From: Acidobacteriota bacterium
GTDB lineage: Bacteria > Acidobacteriota > Vicinamibacteria > Vicinamibacterales > UBA2999
Length of the DNA: 64,000 bases
Direction: 5' to 3'
Assembly: GCA_021731165.1 (NCBI GenBank)
Contig: JAKFXY010000074.1
Location: 2,861 to 66,860, forward strand
Shown here: piece by piece, positions 1 through 12,188 of the stretch
Numbering within the stretch: the stretch's first letter is position 1
Layout of the letters: each line of letters starts with the position of its first letter
Made by a program: the position numbers and the translations under genes
The notes under the pieces: model-generated
The model's database searches: none
Seen by the model: only the letters and a program-made list of their open reading frames with translations
What the model was told of the DNA's origin: nothing

Positions 1-789
1 CGTGCCGACACGGTGACTGATCTGAACAACGAGGGCAACGGCGGCGTGCCGGCGCTGTTCAAGTCCTTCACGGCACAAGCCGGACTCGACTACGACGTGT
101 ACCTCGAGACGCGAGGTGGCAGCGGCCTGGAGTTCCACCTCGAGAACAAGCTCGGGGTCATCGGCAGGCGTCCCTGGGACACGGTGGTGATGCAGGGCCA
201 GAGCACGCTCGACTTCGACAAGCCTGGCGATTCCGCCAAGATCATCAGGACCAGTCGGCAGATGGCCGACTTCCTCCATGGCCGCAATCCGAAAGTGGAG
301 ATGTACTTGATGGCGACATGGTCGCGCGCGGACCAGACATACCCCGCCAAGGGCGCCTGGTTCGGCAAGCCCATCGAGGCGATGGCCCAAGACGTGCGCG
401 CCGCCTACGACAAAGCCGCCGCGGGCGCGCCGTCGGTCAAGTCAGTGATTCCGGTGGGCGAGGCATGGATGCGCGCCATGCAAGCCGGCATCGCCGATCC
501 GAATCCCTACGACGGCGTCGAGGCAGGCAAGATCAATCTCTGGACCTACGACCACTATCACGCCAGCGCGTACGGGTACTACCTCGAGGCGCTGGTCATC
601 TTCGGCAGCCTGACCGGACGCGATCCGCGCTCGCTCGGCGAGAACGAATGCTCGGCCTACGAGTTGGGATTGGCGCGTCCCGATGTCAGAAAGCTGCAGC
701 AGATCGCCTTTGAGCAGCTTGGTAGCGCAGTTACACCGGCTCCCCTGGTCGTGCCCAGTCCCAGCAGTCCTGAACGCTGCGGCCGGTAG
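1..789 (+). CDS. SGNH/GDSL-like hydrolase family protein, 5' end cut by window edge
   Basis: ORF 13..789 is open to the window start. The blocks VVMQGQS, YLMATWSRAD and a C-terminal D-x-x-H (YDHYHAS) resemble SGNH-fold esterases. The N-terminal catalytic Ser block is not in the window. Confidence 0.4.
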   Translation, partial: RADTVTDLNNEGNGGVPALFKSFTAQAGLDYDVYLETRGGSGLEFHLENKLGVIGRRPWDTVVMQGQSTLDFDKPGDSAKIIRTSRQMADFLHGRNPKVEMYLMATWSRADQTYPAKGAWFGKPIEAMAQDVRAAYDKAAAGAPSVKSVIPVGEAWMRAMQAGIADPNPYDGVEAGKINLWTYDHYHASAYGYYLEALVIFGSLTGRDPRSLGENECSAYELGLARPDVRKLQQIAFEQLGSAVTPAPLVVPSPSSPERCGR

Positions 790-892
790 ATGGCCGGGCT
801 GGGGTCCCTGGTGGTCCTCGATCTCCACGGCTAGGTTGCACATCGACCGAGGGGCTACTCGAACACGAAGCAGCCCCTTGCCTTCGTGAAAG

Positions 893-3208
893 TCAGAATC
901 GCAGCAGGCGAGTGATCTTGAGCGCCAGGGAGCGATTGACCAACCGTGGCGCGTCAGGGGCCAGCGTGTCGCGGCCGTCGCTGTAGACCAGGAACAGTTC
1001 GCTGCCGGGGCGGTATTCCCAGCGCAACCTGGCGCTGGAGGTCAGTGAGTGCGTCGCGGCGTTGAACTGCACCAGGCTGCTCACGACCATCCGCGCGTTC
1101 GGTGTGATGATCGTCCTCGCGCCCAGAACCCTGGCCGTGAACTGGCCATAGGGCAGATCGACCCAGGCGAGTGACATCGTCGGCTCGATGGCAAAGTGGG
1201 GGCTGAGCCCGATGTAGCCGTCGTAGCTGGCTTCCGTCTTCGTGCCGTCCCCGTAGAACGATCCCACCGTAATGGCGGCCCGCCCAGACACTCTGCGCTG
1301 CTGCCCGATGTTGTACGTGAACCGCGCATTGGAGTAGTCGTAGCCACCTTGCGGCACGACGACGCCGGTCGCAATCGTGAAGTTCCTGGGGAGGTACTCG
1401 TACTCGCCGCGGTACTCGACGGCGAGCGAATCGCCGCTGTTGAACTCGATGCCGAAGCTGCCGAATGCCGAGCGGTTCTGCACGAGGGTGCGGCCGGCGT
1501 TCTCGATATAGTCGAAGCTCGCCTGCCATGTCAGCTTGCGCATCAGGCGGCTCGACGGCGTGCGAGGGCTGAATCTGACGCGCCCGAAGCTGCGCCGGAA
1601 GTCGGTGCGTCGCACGTAGCCGACCTCGGGGTTGAACTGCGGTCCGATCGCCAGGTGTTCGGCCTCGAGTCCGTACCGATCGCCCCCATACTCGAAGAAC
1701 CCACGGTAGCTGTCGTTGTTTCCGTCCGCCACGCTCGAACTGGTCGTGGCATAGAACCCACCCACGCTCACGTTCTGAAAGAAACCGAAGTTCGCGTCGA
1801 TGCCGCCGGCCCCGTTCGAATCGTCGCCGACGATCGTTGGCGCCCGACGGGTGGCGATCATGCCCACCGTGCTCCGGCGGAAGACATTCCGTTTCAGCCG
1901 AACGACCGAGAAGTTGGTTGCCGTGGCGCCAATCGACGGCTTGTCATCGGTCTGAATGTTCAGCGCGCCGATGCTGTAGGCGCCTACCTGGCCGGCGACC
2001 CGTGCACCGGCCACGACCGGCACGGTCTGGCCGCTGCTCAAGCCGATCTGCCGGCTGAAGAAGATGACCGGGATTTCCCGTTCGGTGGTGCTGCTCGTCC
2101 CGAGCGGTGCGCCGCCGAAGGCAAAGATGCCCTGTCCTTCAAGGAAGAACTCGCGCTTCTCCGGAAAGAAGAGGCTGAAGCGGGTCAGGTTCACCTGCTG
2201 CAGGTCCTCTTCTACCTGGGCGAAGTCGGTGTTCGCGGTGATGTCGGCCGTCAGGCCACGCGTGATGCCGTATTTGAAGTCGAAGCCGACGTTCTTCGCG
2301 AGATGATTGGAATACGGCACCGTCGCGGCCCTGTCGGTTGCCAAGGTTGCCGCCACGTAGGGCTTCAGTTCCAGGTTCTTTGACTGTAGAGGGGTCTCCA
2401 CGCCGACCAGCGTGCCGGCGGCGTTCATCCGGTTCACGGCCCCCTGGCCGTAGGCAGCTGGTACGGCGCTCAGGTAGGAGTTCTCGTTCTTCCACTTCAC
2501 GATCCGCCGGACGTTGATCCCCCACACCTGTGGCCCGGACGTCCCATAGCGAAGCGACTTGAATGGAATCACCATCTCTATCGTCCAGCCCTGGTCGGAG
2601 CGCGCCGAGCGTGTGTCCCACACCGTGTTCCAGCTCGAGTTCAGCTGGCTGTCCACGATGGACTGGTCCCGAAGCGTGCCGAGCGGCCCGGTCTGGAACG
2701 TGAAGCCGTTCCGCCGATCGTAGAACGTGTCGAGCACCACGCTGAGGCTCTCGTTCTGGATGAGTCCGCTGTCATCCCGGCGCAGCTCCGTGGCAATCTC
2801 GCGTGCGGGCTGGCTGTCGAAGCATCGCGCGGCGATGTAGAGGTTCTCCTCGTCGTACATCACCCAAATCTCGGTTGGCTCGGTCGCTTGCTCACCCTCG
2901 GCGGGTACCTGCTGGATGAAGCCGCCTGCGCCCTGGACAGTCTCGTAGACTTCCTCGTCGAGGCGCCCGTCCAGTGTGAGCGGCGTGGCGATCCGGAAGG
3001 CGCGCATCGTCGCGCGTCCGTTCTCGTCGCGGTTGACGGTGGCCGGGGCCACAGGCGCCGGGGGGCCGTCGATTGGAGGAAGCGGCGCGGACTCCGGCCG
3101 TGCGATCGAGGTTGCTTGAGCGGCCAAGGCCGGTCGTGGTGCGCCGACCAAGCCGGCGGCCAGGAGCATGAGGGCACCGACGATGGCGGGCCTCGAGGAA
3201 CGACACAT
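893..3208 (-). CDS. DUF5916 / CBM9-like outer-membrane protein
   Basis: The internal ATG at 3208 gives a signal peptide (MCRSSRPAIVGALMLLAAGLVGAPRPALAAQ). A CBM9-like LDGRLDEEVY block and a long beta-rich body are present. The C-terminal ...LLRF ends in Phe, as is typical of OM barrels. The track start at 3295 would overlap lepB. Confidence 0.6.
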   Translation of the reverse strand: MCRSSRPAIVGALMLLAAGLVGAPRPALAAQATSIARPESAPLPPIDGPPAPVAPATVNRDENGRATMRAFRIATPLTLDGRLDEEVYETVQGAGGFIQQVPAEGEQATEPTEIWVMYDEENLYIAARCFDSQPAREIATELRRDDSGLIQNESLSVVLDTFYDRRNGFTFQTGPLGTLRDQSIVDSQLNSSWNTVWDTRSARSDQGWTIEMVIPFKSLRYGTSGPQVWGINVRRIVKWKNENSYLSAVPAAYGQGAVNRMNAAGTLVGVETPLQSKNLELKPYVAATLATDRAATVPYSNHLAKNVGFDFKYGITRGLTADITANTDFAQVEEDLQQVNLTRFSLFFPEKREFFLEGQGIFAFGGAPLGTSSTTEREIPVIFFSRQIGLSSGQTVPVVAGARVAGQVGAYSIGALNIQTDDKPSIGATATNFSVVRLKRNVFRRSTVGMIATRRAPTIVGDDSNGAGGIDANFGFFQNVSVGGFYATTSSSVADGNNDSYRGFFEYGGDRYGLEAEHLAIGPQFNPEVGYVRRTDFRRSFGRVRFSPRTPSSRLMRKLTWQASFDYIENAGRTLVQNRSAFGSFGIEFNSGDSLAVEYRGEYEYLPRNFTIATGVVVPQGGYDYSNARFTYNIGQQRRVSGRAAITVGSFYGDGTKTEASYDGYIGLSPHFAIEPTMSLAWVDLPYGQFTARVLGARTIITPNARMVVSSLVQFNAATHSLTSSARLRWEYRPGSELFLVYSDGRDTLAPDAPRLVNRSLALKITRLLRF

Positions 3209-3264
3209 GCGATCGGTTGTCGTCAAGGCAAGCCGGACCGCGGAAGCGAATGCCGGTCGGTTCC

Positions 3265-3879
3265 TCAGAAGACGCGAGCGGTGGGAATCGGCCACCAGCG
3301 GAGCTGGACCTTGCCGATGATGTACTTCTTCGGCACCATCCCCCAGTGACGGCTGTCCGAACTGTTGTTTCGATGATCCCCCATCACGAAGTAGTAGCCT
3401 TCCGGAATCACCGTGGGGCCGAAGTCGTCGTGGCTGCGGTACTCGGGCGGAACGAAGTCGTCGCGCATGGGCACGTCGTTCACGAAAACGCCCCCGTCCA
3501 CAATCCTGACGGTATCGCCTTCTTCAGCAATCACGCGCTTGACGAACGACTTGTCGGGGTTGAGCGGATAGAACAGCATCACGATGTCGCCCCTGCGGGG
3601 CGCGCCCATCCGATACGCGAACTTGTTGACGATGAGCCGATCCTGATCCGCGAGCGTCGGCGCCATGCTCAGCCCTTCGACCCGCGCGACCTGGAACCCG
3701 AAGGTCACGATCAGCGTGGCGTAGACGGCGGCCGAGGCCAATGTCTTGAACCAGGCGACGAACTCGTCCCGCCAGATGCCCAGGCGGCGCATCATGACGG
3801 TCGCCGGGTCTTCGAGCTCGAGGCGCACGTCCGCATGGGCCGGCATGGAGGGCAACTCGGCGGTGTCGCCCTCCTGCAT
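3265..3879 (-). CDS. lepB: signal peptidase I
   Basis: Ser box GLSMAPTL, Lys box KRVIAEEGD and the GDHRNNSSDSRHWG box are present. The start was moved to ATG 3879 so it does not overlap the upstream response regulator; the exact start is uncertain. Confidence 0.85.
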   Translation of the reverse strand: MQEGDTAELPSMPAHADVRLELEDPATVMMRRLGIWRDEFVAWFKTLASAAVYATLIVTFGFQVARVEGLSMAPTLADQDRLIVNKFAYRMGAPRRGDIVMLFYPLNPDKSFVKRVIAEEGDTVRIVDGGVFVNDVPMRDDFVPPEYRSHDDFGPTVIPEGYYFVMGDHRNNSSDSRHWGMVPKKYIIGKVQLRWWPIPTARVF

Positions 3880-3908
3880 CAGCAAGGGCTCCTCCGGGGC
3901 GGCGGGCG

Positions 3909-4697
3909 TCAGAGCTTCAGGTACTCTCGCAGCCGCTTCGTCTGCGATCGGCTGACCGGGATCTCCGTCGCCTTCGCGTCCTTCATCCGAAGGATGTAGT
4001 TCCTGCTGAACCAAGGGACAATCTCCTTGATCTTGTTGATATTCACCAGATGCGAGCGGTGGACGCGCCAGAACACGTCCGGGTCGAGTCGCGCCTGCAA
4101 GTCGTCCAACGTCCGATAGTTGGAGGTGCCGGAAATCTGGCCTGTCACTATGTTAATCGACTCGTCGGCCACTGAGGCGTAGATGACCTCGTCGGCCTGC
4201 ACCAGCAGGAACCGCTCGCCCGTCTTGACGGCGACCTGGTCCCGCCGGACATTCCGGCTAGAAACCAACTTTGCAATTCTGTCGAGCTGGTCCTTGAGGT
4301 CAGCCTGCCCGCCGGCCGGCCCCGCGCTGAGGCGGCGGCGGGCCCGCTGGATGGCTTGATCGAGGCGACTGGCCTCGACCGGCTTCAGCAGATAGTCCAC
4401 CGCGTTGACCTCGAACGCCTCGATCGCGTGCTGGTCATAGGCGGTGACAAAGATGAGCCCCGGCGAGTCCTCTTCGCGGGCCAGCAGCCGCCGCGCCACC
4501 TCGAAGCCGGTCAGCCCAGGCATCTGGATGTCCAGGAACACGAGGTCCGGACCATGGCGCTCGACCACCGTCAAGGCCTCTATTCCGTTACCCGCCTGCG
4601 CGATGACCTCCACCTCGCCGAGTTGTTCCAGCTGATAGCAGAGCTCCTCGCGGGCCAGCTGCTCATCGTCGACGACGATGACGCGGAGGGGGCTCAT
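3909..4697 (-). CDS. LytR/AlgR-family response regulator (receiver + LytTR DNA-binding domain)
   Basis: Receiver motifs (VVDDE, FLDIQMPGLTG) and a C-terminal LytTR block (FWRVHRSHLVNINKIKEI). A 4-bp overlap with the upstream kinase gene suggests an operon. Confidence 0.85.
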   Translation of the reverse strand: MSPLRVIVVDDEQLAREELCYQLEQLGEVEVIAQAGNGIEALTVVERHGPDLVFLDIQMPGLTGFEVARRLLAREEDSPGLIFVTAYDQHAIEAFEVNAVDYLLKPVEASRLDQAIQRARRRLSAGPAGGQADLKDQLDRIAKLVSSRNVRRDQVAVKTGERFLLVQADEVIYASVADESINIVTGQISGTSNYRTLDDLQARLDPDVFWRVHRSHLVNINKIKEIVPWFSRNYILRMKDAKATEIPVSRSQTKRLREYLKL

Positions 4698-6025
4698 GCG
4701 GTGATCTGCGCCGCGGCCATGAGCTCGGGAATCTCAATCCTGGCAATCGTGCCGCGCCCGGGCTCGCTGTTCATTTTGAGTTGATACGCCGCGCCATAGA
4801 TGACGCGAAGCCGCTCCCTCACGTTGGTGAGGCCGATGCCGCCGGACATCGGCTGGTCGAGGCGATCCATCACGAATCCCATCCCGTCGTCCTCGACCTC
4901 GATGAGCGCGCGGCCGTGCTCACGCCAGCTGCGAATGACGATCGACCCGGTACCGACCTTGCGCGCGAACCCGTGCTTGATGCAGTTCTCCACGAGCGGC
5001 TGCAGGATCATGCTCGGGACGATGATGTCCAGCGTGTCGGCACCGATGTCTTTCCTGACCTGGAGCTTCGGGCCGAAGCGAACCACCTCGATGTCGAGGT
5101 ACTCATCGATCGACTCCAGCTCGTCTCGCAGGGTGACGAAGTGTTCTTGGCTGCGCAGCAGGCGCCGCAGAAGGCCGGACAGCTTCGTGATGAGCGTGCG
5201 GGCGGTATCGGGTTGTGAACGGATGAGCGAGGAAATCGACGTCAGCGTATTGAAAAGAAAGTGCGGATTGATCTGGCTCTTGAGCGCCTCAATCTTTGCC
5301 GCCAGCAGGAGCTTCTCCTGCTCCTGCAGGCGATGTTCGATGCGCGCGCTGTTCCAGATCTTGATGGGCGTGGCCACGGCCAGCACCGTGGCGAGGACCA
5401 CGAGCAGCACCATCCAGTGCGATGGGGAACCCAGGTAGAACAGCCGGCTGATGCCAAAGCGGATTCCGAGCGCCTGGCGCAGCAGCTCCAGGGCGATCGG
5501 GGCCAGCAGCAGGACGAACTGCCAGTTGGGCTCGAACTTCCGAATCATCTGCCAGACGTGTTTGGGAAGGTCCACGAACACGAAGGGCGTGAACTGCCAG
5601 ATGGCTTCCTTGGGGCACGCTTCACGCAGGCCGCCGCCGGCAAACCCGCATCCCACCGCGAAGGGGAGCGCGATGAACTCGCCCGCCACGAGCGCCGGTG
5701 CCGCCACCATGAGGCCGACCAGCGCCCCCGCGTACGGCCCCGCGATCAGTCCGGCGAGGAACGCCCCCTCGAGCGTGACATCGGCGGCCTGGTAGTTCAG
5801 CAGCAGCCTGGCCGTGACTCCCGCCATGAGCGGAATCCCGATCGACAGGGTGAAGACGAGCCGGTCCAGCCATCCACGTCGCTCGAAGATGAGGATGTGC
5901 CGGAACCGGCGATACCGCGCGAGCATCGTCGCCAGCACCGCGATGACGGCAAGCTTGACGATGAGCGTGGTCAGCAGGAACTGCGCGGCGGAGAGAAATC
6001 TGGCTTCCTGGAGCACCGCGCCCAT
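4694..6025 (-). CDS. LytS/YehU-type sensor histidine kinase
   Basis: Multi-TM N-terminus, an NPHFLFNTL H-box characteristic of the LytS-type His_kinase family, and a C-terminal HATPase (VEDDGMGF). Confidence 0.85.
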   Translation of the reverse strand: MGAVLQEARFLSAAQFLLTTLIVKLAVIAVLATMLARYRRFRHILIFERRGWLDRLVFTLSIGIPLMAGVTARLLLNYQAADVTLEGAFLAGLIAGPYAGALVGLMVAAPALVAGEFIALPFAVGCGFAGGGLREACPKEAIWQFTPFVFVDLPKHVWQMIRKFEPNWQFVLLLAPIALELLRQALGIRFGISRLFYLGSPSHWMVLLVVLATVLAVATPIKIWNSARIEHRLQEQEKLLLAAKIEALKSQINPHFLFNTLTSISSLIRSQPDTARTLITKLSGLLRRLLRSQEHFVTLRDELESIDEYLDIEVVRFGPKLQVRKDIGADTLDIIVPSMILQPLVENCIKHGFARKVGTGSIVIRSWREHGRALIEVEDDGMGFVMDRLDQPMSGGIGLTNVRERLRVIYGAAYQLKMNSEPGRGTIARIEIPELMAAAQITA

Positions 6026-6067
6026 TGTACCTACGGGCGCGAAATCCCAAGTCCCATGGACGGCTGT

Positions 6068-6628
6068 TTATTTGAGTCCCAACGGCTTGCCAGCCATGAG
6101 GAGGCGAATCGCCTCCTCATGGCGTCTGGCCTTCGTCTCCTCGCGCTTGGCCGACTCTATCCAGCCTATGTACTGTCTGCGATGTGAGGGCGCGAGCCCT
6201 TCGAAGTGCCGCCATGCCGCCGGATGCTTCCGTAGCGCTGCCCGGATGTGCGGTGGAGCGGTTGCGGGCGCTTGGAATCGTGGTGCTCGTGGCCCATGGC
6301 TGCGTCCCGTCGGTGCGCGGTCGATCCCACCTGGCTTCAACCTGCCACCGGACTTCAAGGCCGCGTAGCGCTTCCGATTGATAGCCGACCATCGGCTATC
6401 CGCCTTCCGCGGCGTGAACTTGCGCGCATAGCGCGAGTCATCGAGACGCTTGACCAGGCTATCTACCCAACCAAAGCACAGCGCTTCATCGAGAGCGTCC
6501 AGGTACGCAATCGATGCGACACCGGTGTGTAGCTTATGAAAGATGAGCCACACCTCGGACTCTGAGTCGTGGTGCTCGTCGAGCCACGTGCGCCACTGAT
6601 CAGCGGTCCGAGCGACAAAGGTCTTCAC
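6068..6628 (-). CDS. YdeI/OmpD-associated family protein (candidate last cassette)
   Basis: A GTG at 6628 with an AAGGA about 10 nt upstream gives VKTFVARTADQWRTWLDEHH, the usual N-terminus of this family. The C-terminal half (IGWIESAKREETKARR) also fits. Confidence 0.6.
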   Translation of the reverse strand: MKTFVARTADQWRTWLDEHHDSESEVWLIFHKLHTGVASIAYLDALDEALCFGWVDSLVKRLDDSRYARKFTPRKADSRWSAINRKRYAALKSGGRLKPGGIDRAPTGRSHGPRAPRFQAPATAPPHIRAALRKHPAAWRHFEGLAPSHRRQYIGWIESAKREETKARRHEEAIRLLMAGKPLGLK

Positions 6629-6697
6629 GGTTTGCGATCCTTGCCACGCTTGTCCTCCGAACGCGTCGCCTGTGTCGCGCGGTTCACAGCCACGTTC

Positions 6698-6757
6698 TAA
6701 CAACGGCGGCCGCGCCGGCTCCAGGCGCAATGAGGCAGCCGGCGCCGGATGTCAGCG
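6698..6757 (-). repeat. attC-like imperfect palindrome after DinB cassette (weak)
   Basis: Minus-strand GTTGTTA box at 6698-6704. The stem GCGCCGGCT / AGCCGGCGC has one unpaired G. No clear AAC box at the other end. Confidence 0.3.
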
Positions 6758-7237
6758 ACCTACGGCAGTCCGGATGCGCGCGAGGTGGTGCCAGCTGTGC
6801 CGAAGCGCGTGATCCTCGATGACGAACTGCGCGGTAACCGGGGCGCCGAAGCTCAGCGAGAACGGTGCCGCCCGATCCAGCTCTTCATCGCTGAAGGCGC
6901 GAACCGTTGCGGCCGCCTGGTGACTGTGCTTGCGCAACAAATCGAGCGCCTCCGCCTTCACGACCTTGGCGTGCTCGCGGGCGTGGCCGGCATTCAACTC
7001 GGCGACGACCTGCCAGGTCACATCGATGACCGCGTTCCCGCCGGCGACGGCGCGCGCCAGGTCGATCTCGATGGGGTAGACGAGTGCGACATGGTTCACG
7101 ATTTGGCCCACCGTCCGGCGGTCGGTGGGGGACGTTGGAGTTTCCCACTCAACGTCCGACAGCCCTTCCGCAAAGGCAGCCAGGCTGGCCGCACCGTCCT
7201 CGATGCGGGCGGCAAGTAATTCAGTGCGACGACTCAT
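6752..7237 (-). CDS. DinB-family (DinB_2 / MDMPI_N-like) metal-dependent protein
   Basis: 161 aa with conserved His positions (VNHVALV ... HALRHSWHHLARI), typical of the DinB four-helix bundle. Confidence 0.65.
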   Translation of the reverse strand: MSRRTELLAARIEDGAASLAAFAEGLSDVEWETPTSPTDRRTVGQIVNHVALVYPIEIDLARAVAGGNAVIDVTWQVVAELNAGHAREHAKVVKAEALDLLRKHSHQAAATVRAFSDEELDRAAPFSLSFGAPVTAQFVIEDHALRHSWHHLARIRTAVGR

Positions 7238-7315
7238 GCCATTGCTCCTCAGTGTCTGTGGCCGAATCTACTGCCAGCGTCGACGTGCTACATGACATGC
7301 CCCCGGATAAGTTGC

Positions 7316-7385
7316 GCCCAACGTCAGGCATCAGCCACGGCGTACCGACTCCAGATCGCGCCGTCGGCTGCAGGGCGTGTTCGGC
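7316..7385 (-). repeat. attC-like site A (after antitoxin/ParE cassette)
   Basis: Read on the minus strand: GCCGAAC ... GTTGGGC, where GTTGGGC is a perfect GTTRRRY. The imperfect stem has one extra C on the plus-strand 3' arm. It shares CGTCGGCTGCAG (7362-7373) with site B (8481-8492) at the same relative position. Confidence 0.55.
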
Positions 7386-7395
7386 GGCGCGTCGC

Positions 7396-7701
7396 CTATA
7401 AGATCGGCCCGGCGCCACGGCTCGAGTGCCACAACGCCAACACTTGAAGGACATCGCCAGTCACTCGGTAGTACAAGACGTAGCGAATTCGCGACAGCGT
7501 GACGCGTCGTACTCCGGCCAGCGTAGTCCTGCGTGCCCGCGTACCAAGTTCGGGTTGACCACGGAGCAGCTCGAGCGTGTGGTCGAGGTCCTCGAGCACA
7601 GCACCCGGTGCCCCCAGGCGATGCTGCGACCACCACGCAGCCGCCGCAAGGATGTGCTGCTGGGCCTGCTCGGTGATGTCGAGGCGTAGGGCACGGGTCA
7701 C
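7396..7701 (-). CDS. ParE/RelE-family type II toxin
   Basis: The C-terminal block RRVTLSRIRYVLYYRV...VLALWHSSRG is typical of ParE. The GTG start at 7701 overlaps the antitoxin stop (GTGA). Confidence 0.7.
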   Translation of the reverse strand: MTRALRLDITEQAQQHILAAAAWWSQHRLGAPGAVLEDLDHTLELLRGQPELGTRARRTTLAGVRRVTLSRIRYVLYYRVTGDVLQVLALWHSSRGAGPIL

Positions 7702-7919
7702 GCAAAGTGACGCAACCGCTCGCGCAGGGTCTCCCATGACACCACTTGGCCACGATCGGCCTGCGCGATGGCTTCAAGGAGCGCCCGTTCCTCGTCGACC
7801 GAAACTTCAAAGGTCTGCTCGTCGTCCCGCGCCACGACCGTGACGACCGAGCCCTCTGCCCACGGTTCGCCCTCGACGACGACCTTCCCTTCAACGATTC
7901 TGCCGGTGGCAACTCTCAT
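7698..7919 (-). CDS. putative antitoxin of the ParE module
   Basis: 73-aa acidic protein immediately upstream of, and translationally coupled to, the ParE-like gene. The family was not recognised beyond position and size. Confidence 0.5.
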   Translation of the reverse strand: MRVATGRIVEGKVVVEGEPWAEGSVVTVVARDDEQTFEVSVDEERALLEAIAQADRGQVVSWETLRERLRHFA

Positions 7920-7942
7920 GGATGGATCCTACACCCGGGGGA

Positions 7943-8008
7943 CCGGAACTGGCCCCGCGATAGCTCCTTGCGTTGATTCCGGGAGCTTCAGTCGGTCTGC
8001 GGTTCCTG
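7943..8008 (-). repeat. attC-like site C2 (after deleted DinB cassette)
   Basis: Plus strand: CCGGAAC ... GTTCCTG (boxes complementary at 6/7). Stem AGCTCC/GGAGCT plus imperfect outer pairing. The GTCGGTCTGCG next to the GTT box resembles GTCGGCTGCAG of sites A and B. The plus 3' arm is 2 nt longer. Confidence 0.45.
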
Positions 8009-8016
8009 TCCGCCTA

Positions 8017-8077
8017 GACAACGTCAGCGCTATCGCACACCGGCCGAGTGCTTCAATAACGCCTAGCTTTGTTGCGG
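8017..8077 (-). repeat. second, degenerate attC-like element overlapping the DinB pseudogene 3' end
   Basis: Minus strand: CCGCAAC ... CTGACGTTGTCT. It carries the 9-mer CAACGTCAG (plus, 8020-8028) also found in site A (7319-7327) and at 9699-9707. Stem pairing is poor. Confidence 0.3.
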
Positions 8078-8409
8078 AGCAAACTTGAACTCAAACCGCC
8101 CGCGTTCCTGGATCTGTTTCAGATGATGCCGCAAATGAACCAAGTAGTCTTCGACAAGAAAGCCCAAGCTGACCGCTGCACCCAAGCGTCTTGCTCGTAC
8201 CCAGGAAAGGAGCATTCTTTGGCCCGTTGAGCTCGGACGAATCGCTGGTGGTTATTGGCCGCCGAGTCAACCAGGTGACCAACGATTTCTTTAACGGACC
8301 ATACGTCAGGGCCGCGCTTCGAGGCCGCGACCGATTCATTGACCGTCCGGAGCTTCACCCCAGCCACGTCAATCACCCGGGTAAGTTCGTCGGCTAGTGA
8401 TTGAAGCAT
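8063..8409 (-). pseudogene. DinB-family gene with internal out-of-frame deletion
   Basis: The N-terminal frame (8409..) reads ...EIVGHLVDSAANNHQRFVRAQ...FPGYEQDAWV. The typical C-terminus LVEDYLVHLRHHLKQIQERG continues in another frame and ends at TAG 8063-8065. The roughly 60 aa normally found between these blocks are missing. Confidence 0.5.
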
Positions 8410-8431
8410 TGTGTTCGGAAGTGTGCGGCCA

Positions 8432-8505
8432 TATCAACGCTCGGCGCTCAGCCGCGAGCCGTCCGTCGTCGACCGCGGCTCGTCGGCTGCAGCGCCTTGT
8501 TAGAC
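8432..8505 (-). repeat. attC-like site B (after BrnT/BrnA cassette)
   Basis: Minus strand: GTCTAAC (perfect RYYYAAC) ... GTTGATA. Plus-strand arms are GGCGCTCAGCCGCGAGCC (8443-8460) and GGCTCG[T]CGGCTG[C]AGCGCC (8477-8496). They pair perfectly except for two extrahelical bases on the arm next to the R'' box. The brnA reading frame runs into the site. Confidence 0.6.
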
Positions 8506-8792
8506 CGCGTGTTGCCGATGGTCTCACGGGTCACACGGTCCGCCAGATACACCTTGAGCAAAGACTGGTACGGAACGTCACGCTTGTTCGCCAAGACCTT
8601 CAGATCGGACAAGAGCGCCGTCGGCAGTCGGAGCGAGATCGTCTCGGTCGAAGCCTTGAGATTCGGAAACACCACTTGGCGCGCGTTTGACCAGGTCACC
8701 ACGTCACCCGCATCGTGGGTTTCCCAGTATTCCCGCTCCGCATGCTCTGAGGCGAACGGCGGAACCACCTTAGCTGGCACTCGCTTGGCCAT
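8448..8792 (-). CDS. brnA: BrnA-family antitoxin (CopG/RHH-like)
   Basis: ...ISLRLPTALLSDLKVLANKRDVPYQSLLKVYLADRV matches the BrnA C-terminal RHH block. The ATG is preceded by GGAGGGG and overlaps the brnT 3' end. The C-terminal tail is encoded by the attC-like site. Confidence 0.7.
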   Translation of the reverse strand: MAKRVPAKVVPPFASEHAEREYWETHDAGDVVTWSNARQVVFPNLKASTETISLRLPTALLSDLKVLANKRDVPYQSLLKVYLADRVTRETIGNTRSNKALQPTSRGRRRTARG

Positions 8793-9099
8793 AACCCCTC
8801 CGCTCTCGCCGACTCATCGGCCTCACCGAGATCACCCGTAATAGCGAACCCCGAACAGTGAAGACCACTGTCAGCAGCCGCCCCGCGTCCGTTCGCCCGA
8901 ACGCGAACTGCCGGGATTCATTCTTGAACGGTGCCCCAGCTACCACGAGCGGGCGATTCAGAAAGACTTGCTCCGCTTCCGTCTGGCTGACCCGGTGACG
9001 CGTCCAGTTCTTCGACGCATTCCCCTCGTCCCATTGAAACCCCTCGATGGTCGGCAAGAACTCGGGACGAGATCCCACTGCAGGAGTATACGCCTGCAA
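8770..9099 (-). CDS. brnT: BrnT-family toxin (DUF497)
   Basis: FQWDEGNASKNWTRHRVSQTEAEQVF...VVFTVRGSLLRVISVRPMSRRER is the DUF497/BrnT signature. The start (TTG 9099 or a downstream GTG/TTG) is uncertain. Confidence 0.75.
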   Translation of the reverse strand: MQAYTPAVGSRPEFLPTIEGFQWDEGNASKNWTRHRVSQTEAEQVFLNRPLVVAGAPFKNESRQFAFGRTDAGRLLTVVFTVRGSLLRVISVRPMSRRERRGYGQASAS

Positions 9100-9150
9100 T
9101 ATACGCGACGCAACGAGTCGTAGCGACTCTGGAGTGCCGACCGATCAGCG

Positions 9151-9157
9151 GCCTAAC
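9151..9157 (-). other. attI-like core site GTTAGGC (minus strand)
   Basis: A perfect GTTRRRY heptamer lies between the intI remnant and the first cassette, about 50 nt upstream of brnT. Confidence 0.35.
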
Positions 9158-9200
9158 TACTATTCACCTGCAAGCGGCCGGCACGGGATTCGTCCCCGTA

Positions 9201-9224
9201 CGCTCGGTAATCCGGCACCGAGCG
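9201..9224. repeat. 24-nt hairpin, copy 1 (CGCTCGGTA-ATCCGGC-ACCGAGCG)
   Basis: 8-bp perfect stem CGCTCGGT/ACCGAGCG. Near-identical stem to the copy at 9309-9332. Confidence 0.6.
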
Positions 9225-9308
9225 CCCCGGTCATGACCCCATGTGCTTGATTCGGGGGGAGTTATAGATTCCTTGGCGGCAGCGCGTCAGCCAGGATATG
9301 CGCGTGGT

Positions 9309-9332
9309 CGCTCGGTAGCCGAATACCGAGCG
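9309..9332. repeat. 24-nt hairpin, copy 2 (CGCTCGGTA-GCCGAA-TACCGAGCG)
   Basis: Same stem as 9201-9224. It lies 17 nt downstream of the intI-remnant stop and could also act as its terminator. Confidence 0.6.
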
Positions 9333-9349
9333 GAAGAGCGGAACGATGC

Positions 9350-9612
9350 TCAGCCAAGCCCGTCAAAGGGACTGCGTACGCCCCGCCCACCTCGGTTGAG
9401 CACGTAGGTGTACACCATCGTCGTGCTGACGTCGCTGTGCCCCAGCAGTTCCTGAATCGTGCGGATGTCGCAACCGGCTTCGAGGAGGGGTGTCGCGAAT
9501 GAGTGTCTCAGGGTGTGACACGTCGCCGGCTTGGTCAGGCGGGCACGAAGTGCCGCATATGTATGGTGTGCCGCACCTGATCGAGGAGCTTCGGACGAAG
9601 AGGATCGGCCAT
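9350..9612 (-). pseudogene. intI: integron-integrase (IntI-type tyrosine recombinase) remnant with large internal deletion
   Basis: ATG 9612 gives [22 protein letters not shown], then a stop at 9535-9537. A different frame from about 9538 to 9350 reads [62 protein letters not shown]. Both ends match IntI N- and C-termini, and about 230 central codons are absent. Confidence 0.7.
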
Positions 9613-9822
9613 GCTGGGTCTAGGGCCGTTTCGCGAGCGAACACCGTGCCAGCGCCGCCGCGCCTGGATGACCGAATGAATCGCCAGATGGAGTCGTTCA
9701 ACGTCAGTACTTGTGCGATCCGCAGCCGCGCAGCCCATCGCGGAATCTTCCACGCCGAGGTATCGCGGAGTTCGCAGGGATAACTCACCGAGCGATGCTC
9801 CGACCTTCCGCTCTTGGGTTTA

Positions 9823-9850
9823 GGACTTGGGACTTGGGATCTGGGAATTG
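9823..9850 (+). repeat. 4 x 7-bp tandem repeat GGACTTG GGACTTG GGATCTG GGAATTG
   Basis: Read directly from the sequence. It ends 19 nt upstream of the nuoI ATG (9869). Confidence 0.7.
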
Positions 9851-9868
9851 ACCAGCTATGATCGAAGC

Positions 9869-10315
9869 ATGATTCGTCCGCTCCTCGTCGGCCTCGCCAC
9901 CACGTTCCGGCACATGTTCAGGAATAAGGTCTCGGTGAACTATCCGGATGAAAAGGTCCCGGTGTTTCCGAAGTACCGGGGCAAACAGGTGCTGATGCGT
10001 GACGAGAACGGGTTGGAGAAGTGCGTGGCGTGCGGTCTGTGCTCGGTGGCCTGTCCGGCCGACGCGATTTATCTCGAGGCCGCCGAGAACGACGGGACGG
10101 TCATGGCCGGCCCGCGGTACGCCAAGGTCTATCAGATTCACAAGACGCGGTGCATCTTCTGCGGCTACTGCGAGGAAGCATGTCCGGTCTCGGCCATTTT
10201 CATGGGGAAGGACTACGAGCTGGCCGTCTACAGCAAGGACGACTTCATCTGGGACAAGGCAGACTTGCTGGTCATGGCGCAGACAAACGCCAAGACCCCC
10301 GCGGCCACGCGCTAG
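9869..10315 (+). CDS. nuoI: NADH-quinone oxidoreductase subunit I-like 2x[4Fe-4S] protein
   Basis: MIRPLLVGLATTFRHMF...VNYPDEK N-terminus. Two CxxCxxCxxxCP motifs (CVACGLCSVACP, CIFCGYCEEACP). No other nuo genes in the window. Confidence 0.7.
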   Translation: MIRPLLVGLATTFRHMFRNKVSVNYPDEKVPVFPKYRGKQVLMRDENGLEKCVACGLCSVACPADAIYLEAAENDGTVMAGPRYAKVYQIHKTRCIFCGYCEEACPVSAIFMGKDYELAVYSKDDFIWDKADLLVMAQTNAKTPAATR

Positions 10316-10352
10316 TCGGCCCGACCGCCGAGCCCTACCGGCGCGAATCTGA

Positions 10353-12188
10353 ATGAAACCTTTTCTTGAAGCCCTTGGTGAGCGTGTTCTCGTCTGCGAC
10401 GGCGCGATGGGGACGATGCTCTATGCCAAGGGTGTGTTCATCAATCGCTGTTTCGACGCACTGAACCTGACCGACCCTGACCGTGTGGCGGAGGTCCACC
10501 AGGACTACATCCGCGCCGGCGCCGACGTCATCGAGACCAACACCTTTGGCGCCAACCGCGTGAAGCTGCGCGGCTTCGGCCTGGCTGACAAGCTCAGGGA
10601 CATCAACCTCGAGGGGGCACGGATCGCGAGGAATGCCGCGCGCGGCCGCGCCTACGTGGCGGGGGCCATCGGGCCGCTCGGCATTCGCATCGAGCCGTGG
10701 GGAAAAACAGGAAAAGACGAAGCGGAATCCTGGTTTCGCGAGCAGGCGCAGGCGCTGGTGGACGGCGGCGTCGATCTCTTCATCCTCGAGACGTTCCGCG
10801 ATCTGAACGAGATGGGCGCCGCCATCGCGGCCGTGCGCAGTGTGTGTGATCTGCCCATCGTGGCTCAGATGACGACCGAAGAGGATGGCAACAGTCTCGA
10901 CGGCACGGCCCCGGAGCAGTTCGCGCCCGCGCTCGTGCGGCTCGGTCCAGACGTCATCGGCCTGAACTGCAGCATCGGGCCCGCCCCGATGCTCGAGACC
11001 ATCGAGCGGATCCGTTCGCTCGCCGATGTGCCGCTGGCCGCGCAGCCCAACGCCGGCCGGCCGCGCGATATCGAGGGACGCAACATCTACCTGACGTCGC
11101 CGGAGTACATGGCGTCCTACGCGCGACGCTTCGTGGCCAGCGGAGTCCGCCTCGTTGGTGGGTGCTGTGGGACCACGCCGGAGCACATTCGTCAGATCAA
11201 GCTGGCAGTGACCAAGGCCGCGGCGACGGAGAAGCCCCGAGCGGCCGGTACCGCCGTGTCCCCGTCGGTCGCCGAACCGGCGGTGCCTTCCGTGCCGGTG
11301 CGGGAGCGCTCGCAGCTTGCGCGCGCGTTCAGCGAGCGGCGGTTCACGACGTCAATCGGCCTGCTGCCGCCCAAGGGGTATCGAGGCGACGAGGTCGTCG
11401 AGCAGGCGCGGATGCTCAAGGCCCATGGCGTGGATGCCGTGCACATCTCCGAGGGGCAGCGCGGCGCGCGGATGAGCGCACTGTCGCTTGCGGTGCTCAT
11501 CGAGCAGCGTGCGTCGATTGAAACGGTGCTCCATTACTCGTGCCGCGACCGCAGTCTCCTGGGGATGGAGTCCGACCTGCTCGGAGCGCACGCGATGGGA
11601 ATTCGCAACCTGGTGCTCGTCACCGGCGACGTACGGCCCGTCGGGGACTATCCGGATGCGACGGCAGTCTTCGACGTCGATTCCATCGGCTTGACGAACG
11701 TCGTGCGGCGGCTCAACCAGGGACTCGACATTGGCGGGCAGGGGATTGGCAGCCCGACTGCGTTCCACATCGGTGTCCAGGTGAATCCCGGCGCGGACGA
11801 TCTCGATAACGAAATCAGGCGGTTCGAGTACAAGGTTGAGGCTGGCGCGGAGTTCGTGGTGACCAGGCCGGTCTTTGACCTCGGGACGTTCGAGAGGATC
11901 TACCGGCGGCTCGAAGGTGCCGGATTGCCGGTCGTGGTGGGCCTGTGGCCCTTCGACAGCGTGCTGAACGCGGAGTTCATGGCCAACGAAGTGCCTGGAA
12001 TTTTCGTGCCCGACGGGGTGCTGGACCGCATGCGGAGCACTCGTGACGCGCGCGGTGCCGCCGCCGAGGGTGTGGCTATCGCGAAGGAGCTTGCCGTGGC
12101 CCTCAAGTGGACGGTTCAGGGGGTCCACATCGCGGCGCCCGCTGGCAGGATTGATGCTGCGCTCGAGGTACTGGCCGGTGTACGGTAG
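10353..12188 (+). CDS. bifunctional homocysteine S-methyltransferase / 5,10-methylenetetrahydrofolate reductase
   Basis: N-terminal Hcy-binding domain with the zinc Cys motif VGGCCGTTPEHI. The C-terminal ~290 aa are MTHFR-like (HYSCRDR..., VTGD). Confidence 0.8.
   Translation: MKPFLEALGERVLVCDGAMGTMLYAKGVFINRCFDALNLTDPDRVAEVHQDYIRAGADVIETNTFGANRVKLRGFGLADKLRDINLEGARIARNAARGRAYVAGAIGPLGIRIEPWGKTGKDEAESWFREQAQALVDGGVDLFILETFRDLNEMGAAIAAVRSVCDLPIVAQMTTEEDGNSLDGTAPEQFAPALVRLGPDVIGLNCSIGPAPMLETIERIRSLADVPLAAQPNAGRPRDIEGRNIYLTSPEYMASYARRFVASGVRLVGGCCGTTPEHIRQIKLAVTKAAATEKPRAAGTAVSPSVAEPAVPSVPVRERSQLARAFSERRFTTSIGLLPPKGYRGDEVVEQARMLKAHGVDAVHISEGQRGARMSALSLAVLIEQRASIETVLHYSCRDRSLLGMESDLLGAHAMGIRNLVLVTGDVRPVGDYPDATAVFDVDSIGLTNVVRRLNQGLDIGGQGIGSPTAFHIGVQVNPGADDLDNEIRRFEYKVEAGAEFVVTRPVFDLGTFERIYRRLEGAGLPVVVGLWPFDSVLNAEFMANEVPGIFVPDGVLDRMRSTRDARGAAAEGVAIAKELAVALKWTVQGVHIAAPAGRIDAALEVLAGVR

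Follow-up and report, generated by a model that had tools for sequence, protein, structure and literature searches.

We analysed a 64,000-nucleotide stretch of the genome of a soil acidobacterium of the Vicinamibacterales (GCA_021731165.1, contig JAKFXY010000074.1), called the window below, in which a group of small genes lies between lytS and nuoI. The interval between these two genes is very probably a dead integron, a single block of 3.76 kb that came to lie where the lytS and nuoI promoters diverge. It belongs to the co-oriented, Treponema-type integrons, in which the integrase gene intI and the cassettes point in the same direction. Of its intI, 22 codons from the N-terminus and 70 from the C-terminus are left, in different frames, and the element is therefore a remnant and not a working integron. 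Downstream of this remnant stand a probable attI site and two attC sites. Both attC sites retain the full architecture of their family, namely an AAC/GTT R box, a short unpaired spacer and two extrahelical bases, 6 bp apart, on the R''/L'' arm. Gene content was assigned across the window with Pfam and NCBIfam profiles and with the gene calls of an almost identical public contig.

The intI remnant, the attI candidate and the co-oriented layout

The elements at the upstream end of the block are the following.

9613-9813, minus strand: upstream flank of intI, which arrived with the insertion; presumed intI promoter region
9547-9612, minus strand: intI N-terminal remnant, 22 IntI-like codons from the ATG at 9612
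9350-9562, minus strand: intI C-terminal remnant, 70 codons in a different frame, with its stop at 9350-9352
9151-9168, minus strand: candidate for a simple attI site, GGTGAAT-AGTA-GTTAGGC; recombination would fall between G and TT at 9157/9156

The N-terminal remnant fits the PKLLDxVRxxIRxRHYS N-terminus of full-length IntI relatives, after which translation continues out of frame to a stop at 9535-9537. The C-terminal remnant holds box II (HTLRHSFAT) and the catalytic-tyrosine region. Against TIGR02249, the integron-integrase model of NCBIfam, the two pieces joined score 121.6 bits (over positions 231-315 of the 315 in the profile), compared with 71.6 bits for XerD and 68.7 bits for XerC. 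This is below the whole-protein cut-off of 265 because only 70 of about 320 residues are left. The nearest full-length relatives, found on metagenome contigs, are 77-84% identical over the fragment and reach 442-458 bits against the same model. They contain the IntI extra-domain motif KYPNA..EW.WQWVFP and adjoin attC arrays. Judged by these profile scores, the recombinase remnant belongs with IntI and not with XerC/D. The first-pass annotation of the sequence had placed an inactivated IntI-type remnant at 9350-9612, and its location, affiliation and inactivation are all borne out.

The extent of the loss can be read from alignments with intact relatives. In tblastn searches of the window with 12 full-length relatives, essentially the last ~61-74 residues align, and two longer alignments of lower identity (89 and 97 residues) extend into the N-terminal remnant. 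By blastn, window positions 9549-9594 correspond to a segment that sits about 720 nt from the C-terminal part in the intact gene of a related locus (L105), whereas the two pieces abut in the window. Thus intI has lost about 250 internal codons (about 750 bp), including the extra domain and box I, is frameshifted and is a pseudogene. With this internal loss and the frameshift, it cannot encode a recombinase. A near-palindrome, GTTTCGCGAGCGAAC, lies at 9629-9643, which is 17-31 nt upstream of the intI start, and might be an operator of the former intI promoter.

The GTTAGGC core on the minus strand (9157-9151), which the first-pass annotation had already pointed out, lies 193 nt past the intI stop. 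Nine related co-oriented loci carry a GTTAGRC/GTTGGGC core 154-227 nt past the intI stop, and a tenth locus (L087) has it only 72 nt past the stop. In co-oriented loci the core is usually preceded, 4-5 nt upstream, by a weak (G)TCTAAT-like inverted box. Conservation is low outside the core. By its position and motif, the GTTAGGC site is the probable attI.

For comparison of the layout we collected 80 metagenome loci, fetched with the C-terminal fragment alone, and added two loci reached through look-ups of two relatives of the fragment, to give 82 loci. The added ones are L081, a Vicinamibacterales metagenome-assembled genome (MAG) whose intI is split, and L082, a contig of 4.7 Mb in which 131 aa of intI are left. 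The attC sites lie beyond the intI 3' end, with co-oriented cassettes, in 24 loci; in five loci (L111, L123, L130, L132 and L154) they lie upstream and the layout is divergent, as in classical integrons. The co-oriented layout is thus typical of the relatives of this IntI. The window conforms to it, with the order intI, attI core and cassettes, and with intI, the attI core, the top strands of both attC sites and the open reading frames (ORFs) all on the minus strand. The Treponema-type arrangement noted in the first-pass annotation is real, and what was taken there for the rarer layout is the majority layout among these relatives.

An atypical structure, in which intI is transcribed toward the cassettes and attI lies beyond the intI 3' end, is known as the Treponema denticola type (PMC3607928), and inverted IntIs have also been described (PMC8352920). 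The element in the window shares with the Treponema denticola-type integrons the direction of intI, the place of the probable attI and the co-orientation of the cassettes. In contrast to the Treponema integrons, which hold tens of cassettes, it has two recognisable attC sites, a deleted intI and a Vicinamibacterales host.

The attC family and its sites in the window

Covariance models of attC were built without the window, from sites in arrays beside related intI genes in other contigs. Both L081 and L082 have series of small ORFs after intI, on the strand of intI. Within L082, an element of 68-80 nt that fits RYYSAAC...GTTSGRC stands behind each of these ORFs. Model R1 comprises 10 sites from L082 and L081. 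R2 comprises 30 sites from nine loci (L081, L082, L084, L090, L091, L093, L108, L132 and L144). R3 comprises 54 sites from 27 metagenome loci and takes no site from the window, L081 or L082. All three models were scanned across the whole window with filters off.

The consensus fold of R1 has 22 pairs, 12 of them with compensatory changes. In R2, 96.2% of cells are paired and double changes occur at 14 of the 22 pairs; the observed values are reached by 0-1 of 500 shuffles, and no slid register of the alignment comes close. On the bottom strand, the family fold runs from an AAC(A)/(T)GTT R box through an unpaired spacer of 2-3 nt, 5 bp, an extrahelical base and 6 bp to a second extrahelical base, at least 7 bp and a variable loop. 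The modelled family matches the canonical attC plan of the aadA1 and aadA7 attC sites. In 29 of the 30 sites, the folding strand has a C as the extrahelical base closest to the R box (the corresponding window positions are 8492 and 7372), and the second extrahelical base is the usual T in 22 of 30. In the class 1 aadA attC sites the base nearest the R box is G. The C in place of this G could reflect a co-adapted IntI binding pocket in the clade.

Two sites in the window match the models.

8432-8505, folding (bottom) strand plus: attC1, 54.6, 55.6 and 58.4 bits with R1, R2 and R3; E 1e-10 to 3e-11
7316-7385, folding strand plus: attC2, 29.8, 33.6 and 38.0 bits with R1, R2 and R3; E 9e-5 to 1.7e-6

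Both matches are on the plus strand, which is where cassettes on the minus strand should have their bottom strand, and both sites are located 3' of cassette ORFs, with attC1 overlapping the final 56 nt of brnA. Read on the minus strand, attC1 has the R'' box GTCTAAC, the R' box GTTGATA and extrahelical C and T bases 6 bp apart. Its opposite strand scores 17-23 bits only. The DNA fold of attC1 has -28.9 kcal/mol, with a z of -3.7 against shuffles. On the same strand attC2 reads GCCGAAC for R'' and GTTGGGC for R'. Its basal stem is weakened, and the number of mispairs in the stem ranges from four to six across the models. The L'' signature CTGCAGCCGACG is common to both sites. No other attC is found in the 64-kb window, where the remaining best scores of the three models are 12-18 bits. 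A negative control of 1.41 Mb of related chromosomes gave one match at 28 bits, followed by the next at 16.5 bits. This sole control match (L051, 3758-3827, plus strand, E 0.007) has no intI nearby; it may be a lone attC, or else a false positive.

The first-pass annotation had proposed five palindromes bounded by AAC and GTT boxes as attC sites and had suggested covariance models and folding as checks. Two of them, attC1 and attC2, are recovered by all three models at exactly the predicted coordinates and on the correct strand. The other three (6698-6757, 7943-8008 and 8017-8077) remain at background in all models, at no more than 15.8 bits, and fold no better than shuffles (z of -0.9, -1.3 and +1.5). 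In the folding check, attC1 alone stood out. A rescue of the three weak palindromes with the broader models R2 and R3 failed, as the scores stayed at or below 15.8 bits. The interval 7920-8120 has neither a covariance-model match nor a significant fold, and the models find no attC between the DinB gene at 6752-7237 and the YdeI gene, nor after the YdeI gene (at most 15.8 bits). The three weak palindromes may be eroded attC sites. By eye, an L''-like GTCGGTCTGC motif lies in 7975-8000 and a GTTGTCT box at 8015-8021. We also rejected folding energy alone as a test for attC, since only attC1 beats shuffles by it and attC2, a real covariance-model match, has a z of -1.2. Energy is non-discriminating at about 65% GC, and covariance models were therefore used instead.

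The interval could also be read as a genomic islet with no integron in it, made of the remnant of a recombinase of XerC/D or phage type together with toxin-antitoxin genes, with the palindromes as terminators or repeats of the repetitive extragenic palindromic type. Three of the five palindromes are indeed no better than chance, and type II toxin-antitoxin and DinB genes are common outside integrons. Against this, the integron-integrase model gives the recombinase fragment 50 bits more than the XerC/D models do, and two sites match a covariation-supported attC model in a strand-specific manner (55.6 versus 17.5 bits with R2). The attI-like core lies at the distance typical of the family, and the block contains no phage or transposon genes. 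The attC-model matches are also not a common repeat, as none is seen elsewhere in the 64 kb or, apart from the single 28-bit match, in the 1.41 Mb of related chromosomes. This reading is largely refuted already, and we give it next to no credence.

With units delimited by crossover between G and TT, the integron divides as follows.

8438-9156, minus strand: cassette 1, 719 bp, brnT and brnA, flanked by the candidate attI core and by the attC1 R' box
7322-8437, minus strand: unit 2, 1116 bp, a DinB_2 pseudogene, a 73-aa antitoxin and ParE
6062-7321, minus strand: terminal unit, DinB and YdeI; no more than ~10 bp separate the YdeI stop from the end of the insertion

As only two attC sites are demonstrable, there are three attC-delimited units, and the estimate of about five cassettes in the first-pass annotation goes further than these sites allow. 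Unit 2 was probably formerly two cassettes, with the intervening attC decayed. The genes themselves are listed here in the order from attI.

8770-9078, minus strand: brnT, Pfam BrnT_toxin 1.4e-21, profile positions 1-77 of 77; looks intact
8448-8792, minus strand: brnA (BrnA/CopG), Pfam CopG_antitoxin 4.2e-26, profile positions 1-78 of 79; looks intact
8063-8409, minus strand: DinB_2 pseudogene, with an internal deletion and a frameshift
7698-7919, minus strand: 73-aa antitoxin, upstream partner of ParE, overlapping the ParE gene
7396-7701, minus strand: ParE, Pfam ParE_toxin 2.3e-9
6752-7237, minus strand: DinB_2, Pfam 1.7e-8; intact
6068-6628, minus strand: YdeI/OmdA, Pfam OmdA 4.5e-20; intact

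Every plausible gene between lytS (4694-6025, minus strand) and nuoI (9827-10315, plus strand) is on the minus strand, and the ORFs and Pfam matches agree with the first-pass annotation on both the strand and the cargo. brnT and brnA form a type II toxin-antitoxin pair. In the DinB_2 pseudogene, the fragment 8119-8409 covers only positions 16-66 of the Pfam profile, and the C-terminal HxxxH part lies in another frame at 8063-8215. ORFs and Pfam profiles revealed no phage or transposon genes in the 3.76-kb block, and an Rfam scan of 5000-11000 gave no match. No cassette sharing at the DNA level was found with the 82 related intI loci; the only resemblance is a 36%-identical YdeI beside intI in L104. 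A perfect 15+15-nt palindrome, GCCATGAGGAGGCGA T TCGCCTCCTCATGGC, lies at the 3' end of the YdeI gene (6093-6123), inside the conserved OmdA domain, where it encodes ..HEEAIRLLM..; its DNA fold has a z of -4.5, and a GTTGGGA follows 14 nt further on. Palindrome and GTTGGGA together were considered as the missing terminal attC and rejected, as they score 9 bits with the covariance model and have no extrahelical bases and no AAC box.

The insertion between lytS and nuoI

A search with LytS gave 80 loci from Vicinamibacterales and other Acidobacteriota species, with LytS 68-85% identical. The lytS product is of the His_kinase/5TM-LYT type, lytT lies on the lytS side, and the product of the nuoI-type gene has 2x[4Fe-4S]. 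In 79 of the 80 loci nuoI directly adjoins lytS, with a predicted gap from a 35-bp overlap to 270 bp, and neither IntI nor any cargo protein is present in the lytS-nuoI interval of the 80 loci. The only locus without nuoI beside lytS, L010, has a 953-aa ORF (6684-9545, minus strand) upstream instead, with no intI or attC; its positions 1-10000 represent a different rearrangement of the interval.

DNA homology to the relatives ends at ~6050-6056 on the left and resumes at ~9814-9820 on the right, and the block therefore measures ~3.76 kb (~6057-9813). Its contents are intI and the 200 bp upstream of it, the probable attI, the cargo and nothing else. Target-site duplications, terminal inverted repeats and mobility genes were not found at the block ends. 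Another Vicinamibacterales integron, in L081, stands in an unrelated chromosomal context.

From the housekeeping genes on both flanks, the first-pass annotation had concluded that this is a small sedentary integron, and it had asked for the lytS-nuoI interval to be compared in related genomes. In this comparison the gene order of the block is not conserved, and 79 of the 80 loci have lytS and nuoI adjacent with nothing between. Since 79 of 80 loci are without the block and another integron lies elsewhere, the term sedentary, in the sense of anciently resident, is unsupported. An empty site in 79 of 80 species and just two recognisable attC sites do not describe a sedentary integron, which would occupy one chromosomal site throughout the strains or species of a lineage and would usually have a large, homogeneous array. 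On this comparative evidence, the block is a lineage-specific acquisition and not an ancestral sedentary integron. The chromosomal integrons of Xanthomonas are said to occupy a conserved site next to ilvD across the genus and reportedly have intI inactivated by frameshifts or deletions with the array retained. In contrast, the site here is occupied in one lineage of 80 sampled.

If the block were instead ancestral to the interval and had been lost in the other Vicinamibacterales, its GC of 58-65%, similar to that of the flanks, would be expected, and integron loss is documented, for example in Treponema (PMC3607928). However, the 79 related species, the closest included, carry no trace of intI, attC or cargo, and this history would thus need many independent, clean losses. 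The block also splits a hairpin that is intact in the relatives, and other Vicinamibacterales integrons sit at different loci (L081). We regard an ancestral block as very improbable and retain the reading of a recent insertion.

The two arms of this hairpin enclose the block.

6045-6060: left hairpin arm, AATCCCAAGTCCCA; native lytS-side promoter DNA
9814-9850: right hairpin arm, TTGGGTTTAGGACTTGGGACTTGGGATCTGGGAATTG; a promoter-like site for nuoI, TTGGGA-17-TATGAT, overlaps with it

The hairpin, built of inverted heptamer repeats, lies in the divergent promoter region of lytS and nuoI and has the block at its centre. Where lytS-nuoI spacers are present in Vicinamibacterales (40-270 bp), they are often inverted tandem arrays of short repeats, mostly heptamers, that form one long hairpin. 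Such hairpins lie just upstream of lytS, at position ~10000 of the loci (L006, L008, L020, L021, L022, L026, L027, L030-L032, L035, L043, L044, L051, L055, L075 and L076). The repeat unit varies by genome, with TCCCAAC/GTTGGGA in several and AGCCCAA, AAGGCCT, CACCTGN and GGTTGGT in others; L021 has GTAGCCG, and its hairpin has a dG of -102 kcal/mol (RNA parameters). Position and architecture recur across genomes despite the differing units. The heptamer motif is found nowhere else in the 64-kb window. The TTGGGA units double as -35-like boxes for nuoI and, by eye, also for lytS (TTGGGA..TACAAT).

The hairpin repeats TCCCAAC/GTTGGGA of the relatives resemble a core site. Insertion by IntI at a GTT secondary site of the hairpin was considered and rejected, as the junctions (..CCCAAG/AGCGG.. 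and ..GTCCAT/GGGAC..) do not fall between G and TT. A further idea, which we hold to be a long shot, is that long hypervariable palindromes are break-prone capture sites, and that complete 'immobile' integrons move between acidobacterial chromosomes in this way without a transposon. If true, capture at palindromes would explain the differing integron loci in related genomes, as between the window and L081.

Decay of the integron and what it means

From established integron biology, the integron would have been built by IntI recombining attI with the folded bottom strand of cassette attC sites. With the probable attI ~190 nt downstream of the intI stop, cassettes would have been stacked downstream of intI and in the same direction. 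BrnTA is next to attI and so would be the last cassette captured. After the loss of intI, the array would have been frozen into ordinary chromosomal genes and erosion would have begun, affecting since then the other junctions, one DinB gene and the terminal attC. The two toxin-antitoxin pairs are probably expressed from promoters of their own and probably counteract further deletion. BrnTA or unit 2 would be excisable only with a working IntI supplied from elsewhere in the genome.

Several points weigh against a dead integron of this kind. Just two of the five proposed junctions are demonstrable as attC by the models, which leaves five cassettes unproven, and the models derive from the attC sites of related arrays, so that a very different attC type would be missed. 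The IntI-specific extra domain, between patches II and III, falls in the deleted part of this copy. The attI call is made from a 7-nt core, a weak flanking box and the position. A sigma-70 consensus scan found no cassette promoter upstream of attI, with the promoter rules of the phylum being uncertain; with the same uncertainty, the sole minus-strand sigma-70-like site is weak and lies inside the attC1 R' box (8437-8408). The window makes 64 kb of the genome visible, and a trans-acting IntI may be encoded elsewhere.

The last point bears on whether the array is still mobilisable. IntegronFinder uses the term CALIN for an attC cluster without an integron integrase; Cury et al. 2016 (PMC4889954) found an intI pseudogene near 15 of 279 CALINs and argue that their cassettes might be moved in trans. 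The IntegronFinder category of a CALIN with an intI pseudogene calls for two or more attC sites within 4 kb and an intI pseudogene within 10 kb, with intact intI lacking. Applied to the covariance-model matches, this describes the present locus, with attC sites 1.1 kb apart and the intI pseudogene 0.85 kb from attC1. Its cassettes might then be excised and re-inserted by a functional IntI elsewhere in the genome. attC1 is structurally intact and its scores equal those of sites in arrays beside full-length intI, and a near-identical MAG contig keeps the same array. On the other hand, the 64-kb window contains no second intI and no further attC, attC2 is mispaired at four to six stem positions, and no site can be recognised at the other junctions. 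All six near-identical contigs recovered also carry an identical array, with no turnover. We therefore consider continued mobilisation unlikely and keep to the reading of a dead integron. In contrast to the CALINs of Cury et al., the pseudogene here has stayed in one piece with the attI-like site and the first cassette, so that the in-situ decay of a complete integron is directly readable.

The array is found only in near-identical contigs (99.9-100%), which come from one MAG and four sequencing runs. An exact look-up of LytS gave no record, and exact look-ups of DinB and BrnA led to the same array. The contig JBEBJJ010000077.1 of GCA_040079955.1 (L163) is 99.9% identical over window positions 752-9629 and has the same array. 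Window positions 9630-9753 are missing from it. This 124-bp deletion is flanked by GCCG microrepeats, lies close to the upstream end of the intI remnant and takes out nearly all of the near-palindrome at 9629-9643; decay is thus still in progress. Five of the seven substitutions in L163 over 8.9 kb fall in 6520-6698, that is, in the 5' part of the YdeI gene and the spacer upstream of it. The contig stops within the heptamer repeats, which probably broke the assembly at this point.

In the 82 related loci, intI is intact in 54, cut by contig ends in 14 and decayed in 14. The decayed genes are frameshifted in six cases, internally deleted in four and 5'-truncated in four, and about 20% of the evaluable genes are pseudogenes. 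With about 20% of related intI genes decayed, the state seen in the window is thus a common fate. In many intI relatives from soil metagenomes, the IntI N-terminus (..KLLDxVRxxIRxRHYS) is fused in frame to the final 60-110 residues, and the junctions differ (P0004, P0005, P0023, P0027, P0032, P0039, P0055, P0080 and P0101). In-frame internal deletions recur in the unbiased sample (L143 and L157). A conserved 'mini-IntI' behind these fusions was considered and rejected, as the junctions vary and internal deletions occur in four of 68 evaluable loci of the unbiased sample. The excess of fusions is partly an artefact, because the query was itself the fused sequence, and the fusions are hence put down to ordinary decay. 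It is a further long shot that internal deletions which keep both ends of intI are favoured in co-oriented integrons, where they would preserve the intI promoter to drive the cassettes.

Acidobacterial chromosomal attC sites are homogeneous enough for a taxon-specific covariance model (Ghaly et al. 2021, PMC8352920). Similarly, the window sites belong to a homogeneous family common to Vicinamibacterales and soil-metagenome arrays. Integrons of Acidobacteria and their characteristic attC class have thus been described before (PMC8352920), which qualifies the view in the first-pass annotation that integrons are little studied in this lineage. With the corrections given above, its reading of a decaying integron is essentially right. 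As a case of an already known type of element, the locus is clear yet ordinary.

Existing knowledge of the integron mechanism is unchanged by this case. Its value lies chiefly in annotation and in a worked example that follows, base by base, how a complete co-oriented integron turns into an attC cluster without integrase. The steps on view are the internal deletion of intI, the erosion of attC sites, the pseudogenisation of a cassette and micro-deletions between near-identical strains. Such a decay route was proposed for attC clusters by Cury et al., who found an intI pseudogene near only 15 of 279 of them (PMC4889954). The locus also adds a Vicinamibacterales case of an integron that has no mobility genes and was acquired recently, and this bears on how 'sedentary' integrons move.

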